Below, piece after piece: positions 22,205 through 32,310 of a stretch of DNA of 64,000 bases. This DNA comes from Bacillota bacterium. GTDB lineage: Bacteria > Bacillota > Clostridia > Oscillospirales > Ruminococcaceae. The notes under the pieces were generated by a model. That model was not told the origin of the DNA. It searched no databases and was given only the letters and a program-made list of their open reading frames with translations. Position 1 is the first letter of the stretch. Each line of letters begins with the position of its first letter. Made by a program: the position numbers and the translations under genes. The DNA is taken from NCBI GenBank assembly GCA_023421245.1, contig JAEZTV010000015.1, positions 24,360 through 88,359 on the forward strand. Direction: 5' to 3'.

Positions 22205-22281
22205 TGGCGCGCCCGAAGGGACTCGAACCCCTGACCTACTGGTTCGTAGCCAGTCACTCTATCCAGCTGAGCTACGAGCGC
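22205..22281 (-). tRNA. tRNA-Arg(ACG): tRNA-Arg (anticodon ACG), CCA encoded
   Basis: Reverse complement is GCGCTCGTAGCTCAGCTGGATAGAGTGACTGGCTACGAACCAGTAGGTCAGGGGTTCGAGTCCCTTCGGGCGCGCCA. 7-bp acceptor stem, anticodon loop CTACGAA, T-loop GGTTCGAGTCC. Confidence 0.95.
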
Positions 22282-26077: not shown

Positions 26078-27895
26078 ATGGTTCACATTCTAAAGCATTC
26101 CATCACCAAAAAGTTGTGTTCCTTCTCCTTAGCGGCGGTAATGGTTGTTTGCGCAGGTTTTTCGGGCTATACCGCAGACGACCCACAGCAGCAAGGGGAG
26201 CCCCCGCACCAACTGTCTATCCGTGCGGTTGAGGTATTAGAAACCATTGCGCGCGGCGCGCTATCCGAGGAAGAAACGGTGCTCTACACCGTAGATATTC
26301 CGCGTGTGACTGCCCCGGAAGAGAGGGAGAAGACACAGCCGGAAGACACATCCTCACAAACAACGCAGCAGCCCGCGCCCGAGGTCTATGAAGACACCTC
26401 CGCGCAACCCACGCAGGATACATCGTCGCAGCACAGTGGCGGACAGGATGCATCCTTGCGGGAGGAGAGTGGCACGCAAGTATCAAGCGATGAACAGCCT
26501 GCGGATTCGTCCGAGCACACAAGCAGTGAGACATCAAAGCAGGAAGATACCGCGTATACTGCCCGCAGCTATAAACTTGACCGTGCGCTTGCAGAGGTTC
26601 TTGAATCGGTTAATTTGCCGTTTAACAGCAAGCTCATGAAAGCACAGCTTGCGCAATCGCTTACAGACAAGCGTCTGGTGCGCTTTTATGCTGCGTCAGA
26701 CACAGGTTGTGAACACTGTCAGGTTATTGTGACGGTTAACCCTGCTACAAGCGAAGTCAGCATATTTGCCGTTAATTCGGATGAAAGCAAGCGCCATACC
26801 TTTACACTGAGTATTATAGACGAAGCCGGCATGCCGATGTCCGTAGATGGCGCAGAGCAAAAAGGCATGACGGCGGATAAGCGCGTGCTGGACGGCACGC
26901 TTGCGGATGCAGACCTGCCCGATGGCGCACTGGTAGAGGTGCTGGAGATCAGCTTGACGCACAAACAAGATAACAGCGCAAGCAGCGCAGCAAGCAGCTC
27001 GCCGCAGAGCAGCGAGCCGGATAGCGATACTTCTTCGCAGCAAAGCGAGGCACCAAACGAGGAGCCTCCGGCAGAAGAGGCCGCGACAATTGCTGCGGGC
27101 GGGGAAGAAAACCAAGGCCGAATAGCGGCTTTTGCACAGGATGAGCCCGCGAGCCAGCAGCAAACCGCACTGCCGGAGGAGGAGTCTTCACAGGGCACAT
27201 CATCGGAAGGGGCATCCTCTCGAGAACCCGCCTCGCAGGAGGACGAAAACAGCTCGCAGCCCGATGACAGCAGCGCAAGCGAACAGCCTGACAACTCGCA
27301 GCCGTCCGAATCTGCGCCGAGCGAATCTCAGCCGTCTGAGCAGGAGCCATCGGATGATACCGAGCAAACCGAGGTGCAAACCACCATCCTACTGTTAACC
27401 GAAAGCAGCCGGACGCTTGCACTCGATGCGTTTGCGGCGGTTGGGCTTGAGGTCGGTGCGGGCTTTTCAGCGGCAACCGCCGGCGTGCCGACTGCAAATG
27501 GTAAGATTACCATTACAAAAAAAATAGACGCAAACTGGGCGGCGCACGGAGACCCCATCTTTGTATACACGCTTGAAAAAAAGCAAGGAAATCAATTCCG
27601 CGAGATTGCAAGCGACTATATTCGGTTCACGGGCGGCGATACCCGACAAAAGAGCATTAACTTTAATGGGCTTGCCGCAGGAACCTATCGTATTACCGAG
27701 CTTGACACCCTGCGGTACAGTTCTCCAAAGGTTACCGAGGTAAAAAACGGCAAGGCGAGTGGCGCAAGCGTAGAGTTTGAAGTCACAAAAAGGAGTTCTA
27801 CGGCAACAGTGACGTATCAAAGCAGCAAGAAAAACAACGATTATTTTTCACACACCGATGCAGCGAAGAACTCCTTCTCGGCTAAAAAGAAGTGA
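26078..27895 (+). CDS. secreted acidic Ser/Glu/Pro/Gln-rich surface protein with C-terminal prealbumin/Cna-B-like domain
   Basis: N-terminal signal/TM (LCSFSLAAVMVVCAGFSGYTA). Two long low-complexity acidic tracts. C-terminal GKITITKK...GTYRITELD beta-sandwich-like motif. No LPXTG. Stop overlaps the sipW start. Confidence 0.7.
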   Translation: MVHILKHSITKKLCSFSLAAVMVVCAGFSGYTADDPQQQGEPPHQLSIRAVEVLETIARGALSEEETVLYTVDIPRVTAPEEREKTQPEDTSSQTTQQPAPEVYEDTSAQPTQDTSSQHSGGQDASLREESGTQVSSDEQPADSSEHTSSETSKQEDTAYTARSYKLDRALAEVLESVNLPFNSKLMKAQLAQSLTDKRLVRFYAASDTGCEHCQVIVTVNPATSEVSIFAVNSDESKRHTFTLSIIDEAGMPMSVDGAEQKGMTADKRVLDGTLADADLPDGALVEVLEISLTHKQDNSASSAASSSPQSSEPDSDTSSQQSEAPNEEPPAEEAATIAAGGEENQGRIAAFAQDEPASQQQTALPEEESSQGTSSEGASSREPASQEDENSSQPDDSSASEQPDNSQPSESAPSESQPSEQEPSDDTEQTEVQTTILLLTESSRTLALDAFAAVGLEVGAGFSAATAGVPTANGKITITKKIDANWAAHGDPIFVYTLEKKQGNQFREIASDYIRFTGGDTRQKSINFNGLAAGTYRITELDTLRYSSPKVTEVKNGKASGASVEFEVTKRSSTATVTYQSSKKNNDYFSHTDAAKNSFSAKKK

Positions 27896-28410
27896 TGAAA
27901 ACGATGCTGATACGAATTGTGCGCCTGATTCCAAACGCCTTAATGCTGTTTGCCGTGCTGATTGCGGCGGTACTCACGGTACCCCGATTGCTGGGATACA
28001 CCCCCTTTACCGTTCTGTCGGGCAGTATGGAGCCGGCTTACCCCGTGGGCAGCATTGTGTATGTGCGCGACGAGCTGCCTGAGAGCATTCGCGCAAGCGA
28101 CGTAGTGATGTTTGAGCTGCCAAACGGCATGCCGGTTACCCATCGGGTGGTTTCAGCCGATAGCGTGCTGCGAACTTTTGTGACCAAGGGGGACGCAAAC
28201 CCCAGCGAAGATCCGGTGCCGGTACCGTTTGAGCAGGTAACCGGCAAGGCGGGTGTGTGCCTGCCGTTGCTAGGCTATGTGGCGCTGTTTATGCAAACAC
28301 CCTCAGGGCTTATCTGCGTCGCGTTTGTTATGCTGATTCTTCTGCTTGCCCCAAAGGCCATTGCAATGGCGATGCAAGCGGAAGGCGGTAGGACCCCCAA
28401 AGCCGATTGA
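27892..28410 (+). CDS. sipW: signal peptidase I, SipW (ER/archaeal) type
   Basis: SGSMEP Ser box, PVTHRVV His box, VTKGDANPSEDP box. N- and C-terminal TM helices. Confidence 0.88.
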   Translation: MMKTMLIRIVRLIPNALMLFAVLIAAVLTVPRLLGYTPFTVLSGSMEPAYPVGSIVYVRDELPESIRASDVVMFELPNGMPVTHRVVSADSVLRTFVTKGDANPSEDPVPVPFEQVTGKAGVCLPLLGYVALFMQTPSGLICVAFVMLILLLAPKAIAMAMQAEGGRTPKAD

Positions 28411-28501
28411 GAAATTAAAAAGCAATTGCTTGCGTGGCTTTCCATAAAAGGAATAACCGAGCAGCGAAGGCACGCAGCAATAAAATACTGGAGGTAATGA
28501 G

Positions 28502-29125
28502 TTGAAAAAAAGAACAATCCTGCTTTCTTCTCTGGCGCTGCTGCTCGCTGCGGCACTTTCTATTGGCGGCACCGCCGCGTATTTCACAAGCAAGACACAG
28601 CCTGTCACCAACAAGTTTACGGTAGGTGGTGTTACCATTGAGCTTGTGGAGGAAAAGTGGAACAGCGGTAAAGGCAGCGTCAAGCCGGGCAAAGAGGTCG
28701 CCCAAAATATGGTGCCCGGGCAAACCGCCAACAAAGACCCGGTGGTAAAGAATATCGGCGTAAGCCCTTGCTACGTTCGTCTAAAGGTAACGGGTGTTAC
28801 CTATAAAAACAATAAGATCAGTGCAACAAACGATTCCTATACCATTCACGGTGCAAACCTTGGCAACAGCCAGAATAAATGGACTTATAGCCACGGCTAC
28901 TTCTATTACAACCGCACCCTTGCGGGAAAGTCAGGCGCCGTTATTGATAAAACCGAGCCGCTGTTTACCTCGGTAAGCCTTGACCAAAACGCCACTGAGG
29001 GCAAAGCGGCCGACCTTGAGATGGTGATTACAGCCGAGGCGGTACAGTGCGAGGGCGGCCTTGAGCCGGACCATAACTTTAACTTTATTGAATCGGCGAA
29101 AGAAGCATTTCGAAAAATAAGCTAG
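28502..29125 (+). CDS. BsaA/TasA (camelysin)-like fibre subunit with SipW-cognate signal peptide
   Basis: Signal peptide ends in GGTAAYFTS. NKFTVGGVTIEL, PGQTANKDPVVKNIG, CYVRLKV, ITAEAVQ blocks. TTG start with GGAGGT RBS. Confidence 0.8.
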   Translation: MKKRTILLSSLALLLAAALSIGGTAAYFTSKTQPVTNKFTVGGVTIELVEEKWNSGKGSVKPGKEVAQNMVPGQTANKDPVVKNIGVSPCYVRLKVTGVTYKNNKISATNDSYTIHGANLGNSQNKWTYSHGYFYYNRTLAGKSGAVIDKTEPLFTSVSLDQNATEGKAADLEMVITAEAVQCEGGLEPDHNFNFIESAKEAFRKIS

Positions 29126-29183
29126 TGCCCCCTATACTTTGAGGTTCATTCAAATTATATAAATGAAACTGGAGGAAAATTTT

Positions 29184-29858
29184 ATGGCAGGCAAAAAAAC
29201 AATCATTGTTGCGGTATCGCTGCTGATGGCGGCGCTGCTGGCAGTGGGCGGAACCCTTGCGTACTTTACCGCAAAAGCAGAGGTCACCAATGTGGTGACG
29301 ATGGGCAATGTCAAGATTAGCCTGACAGAACCGAATTTTGCTGGGGAAATTGGTCCGATTGTGCCCGGCGCTAAGATCGTTAAGGACCCAACCATCACCA
29401 ACATTGGCAAAAACGACTGCTATGTTCGTGCCAAGATTGAAGTCGATTTTTCCGGCTCCTGCAAGGAATCAAAAAGTGAGGCAGAGCTTGCGGAAGAGGC
29501 ATTGCTGGCACAAGAGTTAGTTGACACACTTCTCGGCGAAGACGCGGAATTGAACCATAAGCCCGATCCTAAACCCAAAGAGATTGAATTTGATATTGAC
29601 ACACAAAAATGGGTACTGAAAGATGGCTACTACTATTATCAAAGCATTCTCAAAGCAGGTAAAAACAATAACGGCGATACAGTGGTGCTGTTTAACAAAG
29701 TAACAATTCCAAAAACCTGGGGCAACGATTACGCCGACAAGACGATAGACATTAAAATTATCGCACAAGCCGTGCAGTCCGATAACATTGAAGAAGAAAA
29801 TGATTTAATCAAGGATAGAAACAAGAAAATTGTCGGCTGGAAAAATGTGACGTTTTAA
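29184..29858 (+). CDS. BsaA/TasA (camelysin)-like fibre subunit with SipW-cognate signal peptide (paralog)
   Basis: GGTLAYFTA signal end. NVVTMGNVKISL, PGAKIVKDPTITNIG, CYVRAKI, IIAQAVQ blocks. GGAGGA RBS before ATG 29184. Confidence 0.8.
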   Translation: MAGKKTIIVAVSLLMAALLAVGGTLAYFTAKAEVTNVVTMGNVKISLTEPNFAGEIGPIVPGAKIVKDPTITNIGKNDCYVRAKIEVDFSGSCKESKSEAELAEEALLAQELVDTLLGEDAELNHKPDPKPKEIEFDIDTQKWVLKDGYYYYQSILKAGKNNNGDTVVLFNKVTIPKTWGNDYADKTIDIKIIAQAVQSDNIEEENDLIKDRNKKIVGWKNVTF

Positions 29859-29918
29859 CACCCAGTACGCTAATACCATCCAGCTTTGCAGCCGCTGCAG
29901 GCGGAAAGGATATGCAAG

Positions 29919-30608
29919 ATGAAACATCCTCTATTAAAAACGCTGGTCTGCCTTACGGCAGTTACTCTGCTTGCCTTTGGGTTTGCGGCAAACGTGTCGG
30001 CGCTGGAAAGCAAGGTGGTGCTTGAAGGCACCGGCGATCTGGTAAGCATACCGGGTAATGACCTGTTTACCGAACTTAAGGATATGATGCCCGGCGACGT
30101 GGGCACGCAGGAGATTCTCCTTCACAACGAGTACAACAAAAGGGTAAGGCTGTACCTCAAAACCGAGGCGGCAAACTTTTTGTCGCAGGAAAAACGGGAG
30201 ATCTCCGAACGTCTGCTGGATGCGATGACCCTTAAGCTGGTGCTGAAGGCCCCGGGCGGGCAGGAGTCCGTGCTGTATGAGGGCAAAGCCTCGGGGCCCG
30301 AGGCAGGTAAGGAGATTTCGCTTGGCACCTACTCAAAGGGTGCAAAGGGTACCATTACGGCGACACTTACCATACCCGCAACGCTCGGCAACGAGTTTCA
30401 GGATGCGCAGGGCAAGGTGAAATGGATCTTTTATTGCAAAGAGGTAACATCAACCTCCTCGCGCCCCGACGACGATAGCGAGCCGGACATCTCCGTCATC
30501 CAGACGGTACGCATGCCCGAAACGGGCGGATTTCCGGTAGAAGCCCTGCTGCCGATAGGTGCGGTGCTACTGGTTGGCGGTCTGGTGCTTGGCAGAAAAA
30601 AACGGTAG
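29919..30608 (+). CDS. cell-wall-anchored TasA/camelysin-fold-like protein with MPETGG sorting signal
   Basis: Sec signal (AANVSA|LE). MMPGDVGTQEILLHN...VRLYLK and GNEFQDAQGKVKWIF blocks. C-terminal MPETGG + hydrophobic helix + GRKKR. Confidence 0.75.
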   Translation: MKHPLLKTLVCLTAVTLLAFGFAANVSALESKVVLEGTGDLVSIPGNDLFTELKDMMPGDVGTQEILLHNEYNKRVRLYLKTEAANFLSQEKREISERLLDAMTLKLVLKAPGGQESVLYEGKASGPEAGKEISLGTYSKGAKGTITATLTIPATLGNEFQDAQGKVKWIFYCKEVTSTSSRPDDDSEPDISVIQTVRMPETGGFPVEALLPIGAVLLVGGLVLGRKKR

Positions 30609-30685
30609 CATAGATTTTACAAGAACAGGGGCTGTCAAGCAAAGCGCTTGGCAGCCCCTGTATTGATAACGAAAGGACACGCACC

Positions 30686-31354
30686 ATGACAACGAAACGC
30701 AAACGAGGGATTGTATCCGGTTTTTTGACGGTCATTGGTATCGTAATGCTTGCGCTCTCTATCGCCTATCAGGCGTACTACTATCCGTGGGGTGCGTTGT
30801 TATCCTCTCTGGGGCTTTCGGACGCACAGGAGCTTAGCGACCCTGCACCCATCCCTGTTTCGGTGCAGAGCATAGAAAGCAGCTTTACCGTGCAGCAGGG
30901 CGTACCCGAGCCGTCCGCACTCGGCAGTTTTTTTGCCGCGCGTCCGGCACTGGATATCACTGCCATAGGCAGTATTAAACTGCCCGCCATCGGGATATCG
31001 GAAAACCTTGTAGAGGGCGGCGGGGACGAGCTGTTTTACGGGGTTGGGCATATCCCGGGCTCGGCGCTGCCGGGCGATGCGGGCAACTGTGTGCTGGCAG
31101 GGCACCGTAACTACTACATCATGCACCCGTTTCGTCATCTGGATAAGCTGGAGACGGGTGATAAGGTTATTGTAAGCTATAACAACACAGAGTACCGCTA
31201 CGTTGTGTACGACTCGTTTGTCGTAGAGCCGCAGGACACGGACGTTCTTGCGCCGCAGGAGGGAGAGGAGCAGATGCTGACCCTCGTTACCTGCACGCCG
31301 GTGCTCAATCCTACCAAACGCCTGATTGTATGGTGCCGACCCGCGGGGATATAA
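30686..31354 (+). CDS. sortase (class undetermined)
   Basis: N-terminal TM. LAGHRN His motif, TLVTCTP Cys motif, RLIVWCR Arg. Confidence 0.88.
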   Translation: MTTKRKRGIVSGFLTVIGIVMLALSIAYQAYYYPWGALLSSLGLSDAQELSDPAPIPVSVQSIESSFTVQQGVPEPSALGSFFAARPALDITAIGSIKLPAIGISENLVEGGGDELFYGVGHIPGSALPGDAGNCVLAGHRNYYIMHPFRHLDKLETGDKVIVSYNNTEYRYVVYDSFVVEPQDTDVLAPQEGEEQMLTLVTCTPVLNPTKRLIVWCRPAGI

Positions 31355-31366
31355 TGGCTATGGGCG

Positions 31367-32218
31367 CTATGCTGTTTTTACGGCCGTGCGCTTGCGCCGT
31401 GTATAGCCTATTGTGTACAGCACAATGCCTGCGGCAGCGCAGCTAATCAGCGTAACAAGATTGAAAGGGTCACCAAGCGAAGCGCTTACCCCGCCGTCGA
31501 TGATTGCGGTAATGGAGTAATCGAGTACGGGGGCTAAAAGTAGCGTGATAGCCGCAACATACCACCGGTTAATGCGCGTAAACGACCAAAGGATAAGAAC
31601 AATCCATAGGTAGGCAAGGCCGCTTAGTGCACAGAAAACACCCACGGGATAGAGCCAGCTTGCGGCCGATTGGTATTGTATGAGCAGCAGAAACGGTACG
31701 ATGAGTATTGTCAAAGCAGACAAGGCATAAACCCCAGCTCGCTTTTTTGATAAAAGAAATGGCGCGGTGACACACCACGCTAAAACAGCCGACCCCAGCG
31801 GGTAGAGCGACCAGCTTATGCTGCGTGTAGTGGCAACGTCGCAGATTAAGCAGACAAGCACGCCAACCAGCAGTGCAGCGGTTACCAGTAACAGGGTAAG
31901 AGTTTTTACGTTCTTGTTATGGCGCATATCAGGAAGTTGCACGTTGTCAGTCTCCGCGTAGACGGGCTCGGACGGTGAAGCTGCACAATCGGTTTGTACG
32001 TCAGACGTAAGACGCTTACCATCCAGCAGCTCATTGATGCTAACGCCCAGCAGCTCGCACAGATGCGGCAGCAGCGTAATATCGGGCAGGCTCTGCCCAC
32101 GCTCCCATTTCGACACCGCCTTATCGGTGATGTTGAGCTGGGCGGCAAGCTCTTTTTGCGTCATGTTTTTGGATTTTCTTAGCTCTGTAATAAACGCTGC
32201 AATTTTGTCATTGTTCAT
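31367..32218 (-). CDS. XRE-family HTH regulator fused to a ~6-TM membrane domain
   Basis: MTQKELAAQLNITDKAVSKWERGQSLPDITLL HTH_3, followed by a multi-TM C-terminus. GGAAAGGCGGG RBS before ATG 32218. Confidence 0.8.
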   Translation of the reverse strand: MNNDKIAAFITELRKSKNMTQKELAAQLNITDKAVSKWERGQSLPDITLLPHLCELLGVSINELLDGKRLTSDVQTDCAASPSEPVYAETDNVQLPDMRHNKNVKTLTLLLVTAALLVGVLVCLICDVATTRSISWSLYPLGSAVLAWCVTAPFLLSKKRAGVYALSALTILIVPFLLLIQYQSAASWLYPVGVFCALSGLAYLWIVLILWSFTRINRWYVAAITLLLAPVLDYSITAIIDGGVSASLGDPFNLVTLISCAAAGIVLYTIGYTRRKRTAVKTA

Positions 32219-32242
32219 GATAAATCCCGCCTTTCCGCCCCA

Positions 32243-32271
32243 ATTGTACCACTTTTTGTTTTGGGGTACAA
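32243..32271 (-). promoter_or_regulatory. promoter of the XRE-membrane regulator with flanking 7-bp inverted repeat
   Basis: Minus strand: TTGTAC, 17 nt, TACAAT preceded by TGg. TTGTACC...GGTACAA arms coincide with the -35 and -10. Confidence 0.6.
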
Positions 32272-32310
32272 CCAACGCGCAGGAGAGTGCCCAAGTAAAC
32301 CGCCGGTAGA

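Follow-up and report, generated by a model that had tools for sequence, protein, structure and literature searches.

Fibres of the TasA type form the principal protein scaffold of Bacillus biofilms, and how they are attached to the cell is still debated. TasA of Bacillus subtilis is generally regarded as sortase-independent, and TapA, which carries no sorting signal, reportedly acts by strand complementation. Here we analyse six genes at positions 26078-31354 of a 64,000-nucleotide stretch of DNA from an uncultured, gut-type Bacillota bacterium of the class Clostridia and family Ruminococcaceae (assembly GCA_023421245.1, contig JAEZTV010000015.1, positions 24,360 to 88,359 of the forward strand). 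We call this whole stretch the window, and all coordinates refer to it unless a locus number precedes them. We consider it probable, at roughly 70%, that the six genes form an operon whose products build a SipW-dependent surface fibre of the TasA/BsaA type, attached to the cell wall by way of a sortase.

In the bsa system of Clostridium perfringens, a sortase gene lies beside sipW, and deletion of this gene, srtB, left the pellicle and the BsaA polymers of strain 13 unchanged (Obana et al. 2020; PMC7395162). Mutagenesis showed that BsaA oligomers need Asn35 of the donor strand together with Glu56 and Lys74 of the receiving subunit, and an 'exchange and lock' mechanism was proposed; TasA lacks this Asn/Glu/Lys triad (PMC11580942). 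BsaC, a large secreted protein encoded in the bsa operon, has a VWA domain (PMC11580942). Kivimaki et al. found that a BsaB-like gene bearing an LPXTG motif is kept in most C. perfringens strains and has been lost in strain 13, and they speculated that the LPXTG-bearing BsaB-like protein and SrtB anchor the fibre to peptidoglycan (PMC11580942). They also noted that BsaA/TasA genes frequently share putative operons with LPxTG, SpaA-domain, signal-peptidase and sortase genes (PMC11580942). A preprint on AbpX reported that bacterial TasA-superfamily loci are frequently linked to LPXTG-anchor proteins and sortases, and it presented AlphaFold3 donor-strand oligomers that include an LPXTG anchor protein (10.64898/2026.01.04.697558). 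The TasA/CalY system of Bacillus cereus is explicitly described as sortase-independent, and CapP of this species was reported to be held on the wall by a disordered C-domain (PMC13082335).

Organization of the locus

The six genes and the sequence motifs used to assign them are as follows (aa, amino acids; ORF, open reading frame; ER, endoplasmic reticulum).

26078-27895, + strand: P1, 605 aa, acidic secreted accessory protein (ORF and composition)
27892-28410, + strand: SipW-type (archaeal/ER-type) signal peptidase I (TIGR02228, PF10502)
28018-28035, + strand: SGSMEP box of the signal peptidase (motif)
28138-28149, + strand: THRV box of the signal peptidase (motif)
28186-28200, + strand: KGDAN box of the signal peptidase (motif)
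28502-29125, + strand: P3, 207 aa, BsaA/TasA-family subunit (TIGR04088)
29184-29858, + strand: P4, 224 aa, second BsaA/TasA-family subunit (TIGR04090, TIGR04088, PF12389)
29919-30608, + strand: P5, 229 aa, divergent TasA-fold protein with an MPETGG sorting signal (TIGR01167, AlphaFold2/Foldseek, hhalign)
30513-30530, + strand: MPETGG motif of P5 (sorting signal)
30686-31354, + strand: sortase, 222 aa (PF04203, TIGR01076)

A preliminary description of this DNA, made without database searches, had pointed to six tightly spaced, co-directional genes at 26078-31354, and we recovered all of their ORFs at these coordinates, with intergenic gaps of 58-91 bp. The first protein is indeed acidic (97 Asp+Glu against 49 Lys+Arg), and its stop codon overlaps the GTG start of the signal peptidase gene (GTGATG), as that description had stated. 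Each motif that it quoted was also found, namely SGSMEP, THRV and KGDAN in the signal peptidase, GGTAAYFT and GGTLAYFT in P3 and P4, MPETGG with a hydrophobic segment and GRKKR in P5, and GHRN, TLVTC and the Arg in the sortase. Purine-rich sequences resembling a ribosome-binding site lie 5' of P1, P3, P4, P5 and the sortase gene, and none lies 5' of the signal peptidase gene. Because the latter lacks such a sequence and its start overlaps the P1 stop, its translation is likely to be coupled to that of P1. P4 and P5 are in the same reading frame. The genes that flank the cassette on both sides are on the opposite strand, so that the six genes look like a single transcription unit.

Comparison with described fibre and pilus loci

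The locus resembles C. perfringens bsa in most of its components. Each encodes a peptidase of the SipW type, BsaA-family subunits that carry SipW-cognate signals and a set of Asn, Glu and Lys residues (matched between the two by spacing and conservation), a second TasA-like protein with an LPXTG motif (in most C. perfringens strains; here P5), a large accessory protein (with a VWA domain in BsaC and in longer orthologues of P1) and a sortase gene adjoining the operon. They differ in arrangement, as the large protein is encoded first here and the sortase last and co-directionally, whereas srtB of C. perfringens is divergent. The sorting motif here is MPETGG, P1 of the window has no VWA domain, and no two-component regulator genes lie beside the cassette. 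The sequences are too distant for orthology at the level of BLAST, and the likeness is one of components rather than of directly aligned sequences.

With tapA-sipW-tasA of B. subtilis and CapP/CalY/TasA of B. cereus, the locus has in common a dedicated SipW, donor-strand subunits of the TasA fold (8AUR) and an accessory protein that would tie the fibre to the cell surface. Whereas the Bacillus fibres are described as sortase-independent (PMC13082335), the anchor proposed here is a TasA-fold protein with an LPXTG-type signal. Sortase pili of the SpaA/RrgB type also have a tip adhesin (often with a VWA domain), a shaft and a wall-anchored base, draw strength from isopeptide bonds and include a sortase in the locus. 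In those pili, however, the sortase polymerizes pilins that each carry LPXTG. Here the shaft has no sorting signal and should polymerize by strand insertion and spontaneous isopeptide formation, and the base protein P5 would be the only sortase substrate. AbpX-like loci with LPXTG or SLH anchors similarly link anchor proteins and sortases to TasA-superfamily genes (10.64898/2026.01.04.697558), but the AbpX clade has a dedicated signal peptidase with ten membrane helices, whereas the window encodes a small SipW-type enzyme and subunits of the BsaA clade.

A SipW-type peptidase and two BsaA/TasA-family subunits

The signal peptidase passed the model for archaeal/ER-type signal peptidase I (TIGR02228; 91 bits, cut-off 51.85) and matched PF10502 at 25.9 bits. 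Against the equivalog model for Bacillus SipW (NF046067), it reached 83.8 bits, far under the cut-off of 190, and so we treat it as a SipW-type enzyme and not as an orthologue of B. subtilis SipW. The catalytic Ser and His boxes of SipW-type peptidases are present, and catalytic activity is predicted from them.

The two proteins with AYFT-type signals, P3 and P4, fell into the families in which the preliminary description had placed them, P3 in part at sub-threshold level. Both matched the model for SipW-cognate signals (TIGR04088), P3 at 25 bits and P4 at 34.3 bits (cut-off 19). P4 also passed the BsaA model TIGR04090 (61.5 against 60) and PF12389, the Peptidase_M73 family of camelysin and TasA (28.6 against 22.5); P3 was under the cut-off for each (47.2 against 60 and 15.9 against 22.5, respectively). 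P3 is 31% identical to P4 (E 5e-20) and matches the hidden Markov model (HMM) of the P4 family at E 1e-53. A PDB sequence search with P4 and P5 returned only chance-level matches.

The P3 signal (GGTAA/YFT) leads into the donor strand VTNKFTVG, and the P4 signal (GGTLA/YFT) into VTNVVTMG. Asn37, Glu50 and Lys78 of P3 occupy the same alignment columns as Asn36, Glu49 and Lys67 of P4, and among 113 aligned members of the P4 family these residues are conserved in 113, 108 and 110 sequences, respectively. The conserved Asn lies about nine residues into the mature protein, which fits its position in the BsaA triad. The Glu-to-Lys spacing of 18 in P4 equals that of E56-K74 in BsaA, the triad being mapped through spacing and conservation, without a direct alignment to BsaA. 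As a sequence pattern, the Asn-Glu-Lys set of P3 and P4 fits the isopeptide 'lock' of C. perfringens BsaA.

P4 is further distinguished by a C-terminal extension ending IVGWKNVTF. Neither P3 nor P4 carries a sorting signal; the SpaA-type arrangement, in which LPXTG-bearing shaft pilins are joined by a class C sortase, is thus not seen in these subunits. We propose that P3 is the shaft subunit and that P4 is an adaptor next to the anchor P5.

P5 combines a TasA-like core with a sorting signal

P5 has a signal peptide of the ordinary type (VSA/LES), with no match to TIGR04088. It is followed by a core at residues 29-178, a linker rich in Ser, Thr and Asp, and a cell-wall sorting signal. The C terminus consists of MPETGG, the hydrophobic segment FPVEALLPIGAVLLVGGLVL and GRKKR, and it passed the LPXTG-anchor model TIGR01167 (17.4 bits against a cut-off of 15.9). 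The sequence RMPETGGFP is invariant among the closest relatives of P5, and within the window P5 is the sole protein with a sorting signal. On the basis of these motifs, we propose that P5 is a sortase substrate, with cleavage and transfer to peptidoglycan predicted.

No match to P5 was found in Pfam, or by tblastn in a plasmid collection. An AlphaFold2 model built from an alignment of 8 sequences has a confident core at residues 29-178, with block mean values of the predicted local distance difference test (pLDDT) mostly about 80-94. When this model was compared with 350,542 PDB chains by Foldseek, the best match was the TasA fibre 8AUR (E 2.3e-4, probability 1.00), followed by the archaeal bundling pilus 7UEG; the TasA monomer 5OF2 came sixth (probability 1.00). 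Alignment of the P5-family profile (about 137 clusters) with the P4-family profile (113) by hhalign gave a probability of 97.3% and E 2.5e-11 over 141 columns, with residues 31-175 of P5 on residues 35-198 of P4. The blocks common to the two families are the N-terminal strand, xxMPGD, the next strand, which ends in N, and LGNEFQ before the last strand. On these two independent lines, the model and the profile, P5 is distantly homologous to TasA/BsaA and shares their fold, as the preliminary description had surmised.

The sortase matched PF04203 at 104 bits and TIGR01076 at 92 bits. It has one N-terminal membrane anchor and contains the His (GHRN), Cys (TLVTC) and Arg (KRLIVWCR) expected of the family. 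The NCBIfam models for sortase classes all scored under their cut-offs of 160-165 (class E, 96.7 bits; class C, 90.5 bits; class D, 78.8 bits). Among solved structures, C. perfringens SrtD (4D70) and a class C sortase (8T28) come closest, each at about 70 bits. The window encodes no other sortase, and P5 is the sole candidate substrate nearby.

The sorting signal is a hallmark of the P5 family

A word-indexed homologue search returned only 7 close relatives of P5, and an exhaustive profile search revealed a wider family of 1595 representative clusters at E <=1e-3 (clusters at 50% identity). A hydrophobic segment with a basic tail is present in 146 of 156 representatives, and 126 of the 156 have an xPxTG, xxTG[D/G/E] or xPxT[A/S] motif before the hydrophobic segment. 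Among the representatives without motif or tail are some whose contig ends just after the motif. The sorting signal is a hallmark of the family, and its motif varies by lineage: MPETGG or MPNTGG in the clade of the window, PxTGD in Oscillospiraceae and other Clostridia, VVTGD in the Clostridium collagenovorans group, and LPDTA, LPNTA or LPETGT in Bacillaceae.

No Pfam or NCBIfam model covers the core domain of the family, and its members match only anchor-domain models and, weakly, NF053819. Weak contact with PF12389 was seen for 3 of 60 members. As a separate observation, 24 of 60 members weakly match NF053819, a short model for EF2685/EF0750, sortase-dependent proteins of Enterococcus faecalis.

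Eight representatives of about 370-440 aa (P0038, P0048, P0080, P0084, P0093, P0102, P0103 and P0126) are natural fusions, in which a SipW-type signal and a P4-like domain are followed by a linker of 15-30 residues, a P5-like domain and the anchor. Such fusions are classic evidence for physical cooperation of the two parts. In layout, they resemble engineered self-complemented pilins.

The cassette is conserved beyond its flanks

A scan of one genome per species with a narrow P5 alignment gave 39 loci, a sample biased to relatives with two shared motifs. The ORFs of these loci were searched with the HMMs of the P5 and P4 families and with the signal peptidase, sortase and P1 of the window. One 98%-identical contig (L001) has the same locus. 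A metagenome contig (L002), with a P5 that is 58% identical, carries the same six genes in the same order between unrelated flanks. The full cassette (P1 where on the contig, SipW, one or two TasA-like genes, P5 and sortase) was found in seven further species-level genomes (L004-L010). L004-L007 and L010 share the synteny of the window, rearrangement is seen in L008, and the context differs in L009.

Linkage of the anchor gene to TasA/BsaA genes extends over nearly the whole sample: such genes adjoin the P5-family gene in 38 of the 39 loci, the exception being a 4.7-kb contig fragment. A SipW gene lies <=8 kb from the P5-family gene in 31 of 39. Of 30 clostridial loci, 28 have a TasA-like gene whose end is <=150 bp upstream of the anchor gene; among closer relatives, this neighbour belongs to the P4 type and bears GW or WG in a C-terminal extension. 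That sipW, the sortase and the TasA-like genes belong together, as the preliminary description had supposed, is borne out by the recurrence of the cassette in L002 and L004-L010, with differing flanks in L002, L008 and L009, and the survey of neighbourhoods points the same way through the 38 of 39 adjacent genes and the fusions.

Between the window and the syntenic loci L004-L007, P5 is 66-70% identical and P4 about 48-52%. In the flanks of these loci, an SSF transporter, an MFS transporter and an alpha-amylase-family protein are 79-87% identical, and other flank proteins 50-83%. Divergence of the cassette above that of some flanking genes would fit fast evolution of a surface structure.

The Bacillaceae loci (L034-L041) come from Sediminibacillus, Virgibacillus, Ornithinibacillus, Peribacillus, Neobacillus and Bacillus sp. 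In these, sipW lies directly upstream of the P5-family gene or one TasA-like gene away (L035, L039 and L040), and the P5-family proteins end in LPDTA, LPNTA or LPETGT and a membrane segment. In two of these loci, a sortase is encoded about 2 kb away on the other strand. The Bacillaceae P5-family protein would be a sortase-anchored counterpart of TapA.

P1 has a donor-strand-like C-terminal tail

P1 has an N-terminal signal or anchor segment and then a long region rich in Ser, Asp and Glu; its C-terminal domain (about residues 475-590) is beta-rich. Orthologues that occupy this place in the operon measure 984-1271 aa and contain a VWA domain (PF00092, E 1e-8 to 1e-16):

L005:2266-5973: VWA-bearing P1 orthologue
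L007:2087-5902: VWA-bearing P1 orthologue
L008:1255-5046: VWA-bearing P1 orthologue
L011:2442-5396: VWA-bearing P1 orthologue
L012:2997-5963: VWA-bearing P1 orthologue

Short forms without this domain occur in the window (605 aa) and in L004 (620 aa), yet L005 and L007 are syntenic with the window. This suggests that the VWA domain was recently lost or exchanged in P1 of the window. The C-terminal domain is common to all orthologues. It has a sub-threshold match to a SpaA-like Pfam domain, and its AlphaFold2 model, made from two sequences, is poor (pLDDT 54). A homologue search with this domain returned one protein (P0268). When its profile was aligned with that of the P4 family by hhalign, no TasA-like domain was found, except for a 15-residue tail:

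27839-27892, + strand: extreme C-terminal tail of P1, DYFSHTDAAKNSFSAKKK, donor-strand-like (hhalign to the P4 family)

Within this tail, the segment DYFSHTDAAKNSFSA aligns with the mature N terminus and donor strand of the P4 family, AYFTAKAEVTNVVTM, in a weak match (E 0.023), and the aromatic-to-Asn spacing is +9 in both. We compared the tails of P1 orthologues (those of the window, L002, L004, L005, L007, L008, L010, L011 and L012, and P0268). The pattern [YW][FYL][ST]HTD..[KR]N[ST][FI] stands at the very C terminus in 9 of the 10 orthologues, and also in the sole database homologue found; L010 is divergent (WFSGSDVVVNNI). Judged from this pattern, the tail of P1 could supply a donor strand to the unoccupied groove at one fibre end. 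We propose that P1 is a BsaC-like accessory protein.

A tail of similar aromatic...N.[F] form was seen at L033, a locus without a P1 orthologue, where a protein of 519 aa, the gene of which lies between those for the TasA-like proteins and for the anchor (L033:5870-7429), ends KWLSGAASLIRNWFGF.

Neighbouring features

Directly 3' of the sortase gene lies a convergent gene (31367-32275, - strand) for a protein with an XRE-type helix-turn-helix (HTH) domain followed by several membrane segments. This gene is retained in L001 and, at 49% identity, in L007, and it could encode a local regulator. By Rfam, there is no regulatory RNA (a cyclic di-GMP riboswitch or another riboswitch) upstream of the operon, and the sole Rfam match in the window is a single tRNA gene (22208-22281, - strand). 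Simple scans for promoters and terminators gave counts at chance level and were uninformative.

A model for a wall-anchored fibre and its alternatives

In the model that we favour, the SipW-type peptidase would remove the signal peptides of P3 and P4 and free an N-terminal strand (YFT..VTNxxT.G), which would insert into the groove of a neighbouring subunit by donor-strand exchange. The Asn of the strand would then be locked to the Lys of the groove, with the Glu assisting, as in C. perfringens BsaA. P3 would form the shaft and P4 the adaptor that contacts P5, a role suggested by the P4-type gene that adjoins the anchor gene and is sometimes fused to it. The sortase would cleave P5 at MPET/GG and join it to peptidoglycan, so that the fibre is held at its base. 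P1 would be a BsaC-like accessory or tip protein, the C-terminal tail of which may join the end with the free groove; the majority of its relatives have a VWA adhesion domain, which this copy lacks. Two polarities can be drawn. Should the tail of P1 fill a groove at the tip, P5 would be expected to accept the final strand at the base. A P5 that gives its strand to P4 equally fits the layout of the fusions (acceptor domain, linker, P5-like N-terminal strand), and TapA is said to give its strand to TasA.

A bolder form of this model, which we regard as tentative and rather doubtful, is a three-part pilus with a sortase-free, isopeptide-locked shaft of P3, an adaptor P4, a base P5 and a tip P1 that is joined through its tail plugging the groove. 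In such a pilus, the tail (YFSHTD..KNSF) would copy the donor strand including its reactive Asn, and perhaps be locked covalently as well. If true, this would be a kind of pilus that has never been demonstrated.

The identity of the parts, the homology of P5 to the subunits and the linkage of the genes are read from the sequences themselves. Several points weigh against a wall-anchored fibre. We infer the formation of a fibre, the cleavage of P5 and its contact with P3 or P4 from genomic and structural comparisons. The TM-scores of P5 in Foldseek are modest (0.44), in part because the signal peptide, linker and anchor, about 80 residues, are counted in. At the Asn, Glu and Lys columns of P4, P5 has Lys32, Ile44 and Gln64, which excludes it from a lock of the BsaA type, so that its contact with the fibre would be non-covalent. 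The triad itself is placed on BsaA numbering by spacing and conservation rather than by direct alignment with BsaA. P1 of the window matches no Pfam or NCBIfam model and has no VWA domain. A sortase gene is adjacent or near in only 9 of the 39 loci, 7 from the clade of the window and two from Bacillaceae, where it is on the opposite strand. The BsaA oligomers of C. perfringens strain 13 are attached to the membrane and not to the wall, and deletion of srtB had no effect on pellicle or polymers, in a strain that has lost the LPXTG gene (PMC7395162, PMC11580942).

The lack of the Asn/Glu/Lys set and of a SipW-type signal peptide could also mean that P5 is a free-standing, wall-fixed protein of the TasA fold, co-regulated with the fibre genes and serving as a docking site that binds fibres of adjacent cells from the side, or as a length-limiting cap, rather than as a fibre subunit. 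BsaB, its nearest characterised analogue, is not incorporated into BsaA oligomers in strain 13, which suits such a role. We find it unlikely, because the fusions of P4-like and P5-like domains and the near-universal placement of the anchor gene after a TasA-like gene argue for direct physical coupling, as do the AlphaFold3 donor-strand oligomers of an LPXTG anchor and a fibre subunit from C. amylolyticum (10.64898/2026.01.04.697558). A different role for the sortase, that of a pilin polymerase in the manner of class C, seems improbable. In this role, it would link the MPET Thr of P5 to a Lys in P3, P4 or P1 instead of to peptidoglycan, and any final attachment to the wall would be made elsewhere. 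It is true that the enzyme is encoded beside its substrate, as is typical of pilus loci, that the class C model scores near class E (90.5 against 96.7 bits) and that a class C structure is one of the two best PDB matches. Against this, the enzyme scores under the cut-off of every class model, has only one membrane segment, at the N terminus, and, on reading the sequence, shows no obvious DP(F/W/Y) lid motif. As P3 and P4 have no sorting signals, there could be at most one transfer per fibre, and most loci of the P5 family have no dedicated sortase.

We give still less credence to the view that P3 and P4 are soluble secreted proteins of the camelysin/TasA family and that the locus makes no polymer. 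The camelysin family was first annotated as a peptidase, as the name of PF12389 recalls, and no polymer has been observed for these proteins. That annotation is, however, considered a likely misidentification (PMC11580942), the solved members of the family are donor-strand fibres (8AUR, 7UEG), and a near-invariant N-terminal strand with Asn, Glu and Lys is hard to explain without insertion of strands between subunits. Finally, the presence of an adjacent sortase in only 9 of 39 related loci might indicate that a sipW/TasA-like cluster adjoins an unrelated locus for a sortase and its substrate. We rejected this scarcely credible reading because the substrate P5 is itself a TasA/BsaA homologue, its gene has TasA-like neighbours in 38 of 39 loci, several proteins are fusions of the two, and the six genes stay together despite differing flanks. 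A SipW-dependent fibre with P5 as its sortase-fixed base is the account that we retain.

The preliminary description had regarded a wall-anchored TasA-type fibre as uncharacterised. This holds as far as experiment is concerned, but the design has already been described or discussed in preprints (2024-2026): it is known from genome comparison and as a hypothesis, and it is of an experimentally untested kind. The locus in the window is a rather clean example of it, with a dedicated and co-directional sortase. Relative to both preprints, the present analysis appears to add that the anchor family is large and uniform, that adaptor and anchor are constantly paired and occasionally fused, that the anchor lacks the lock residues, and that the large accessory protein has a donor-strand-like tail. 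These four points are computational leads.

Proteins of the P5 family are now annotated only as 'LPXTG anchor' or 'hypothetical'. A compact cassette with its own sortase offers a convenient system for studying the anchoring hypothesis, which cannot be tested in C. perfringens strain 13 because the LPXTG gene has been lost there, as well as the polarity of fibre growth and the attachment of tip proteins. Loci of this sort suggest that many Clostridia, including Oscillospiraceae of the gut, and some Bacillaceae anchor their fibres through a TasA-fold protein fixed to the wall by a sortase.

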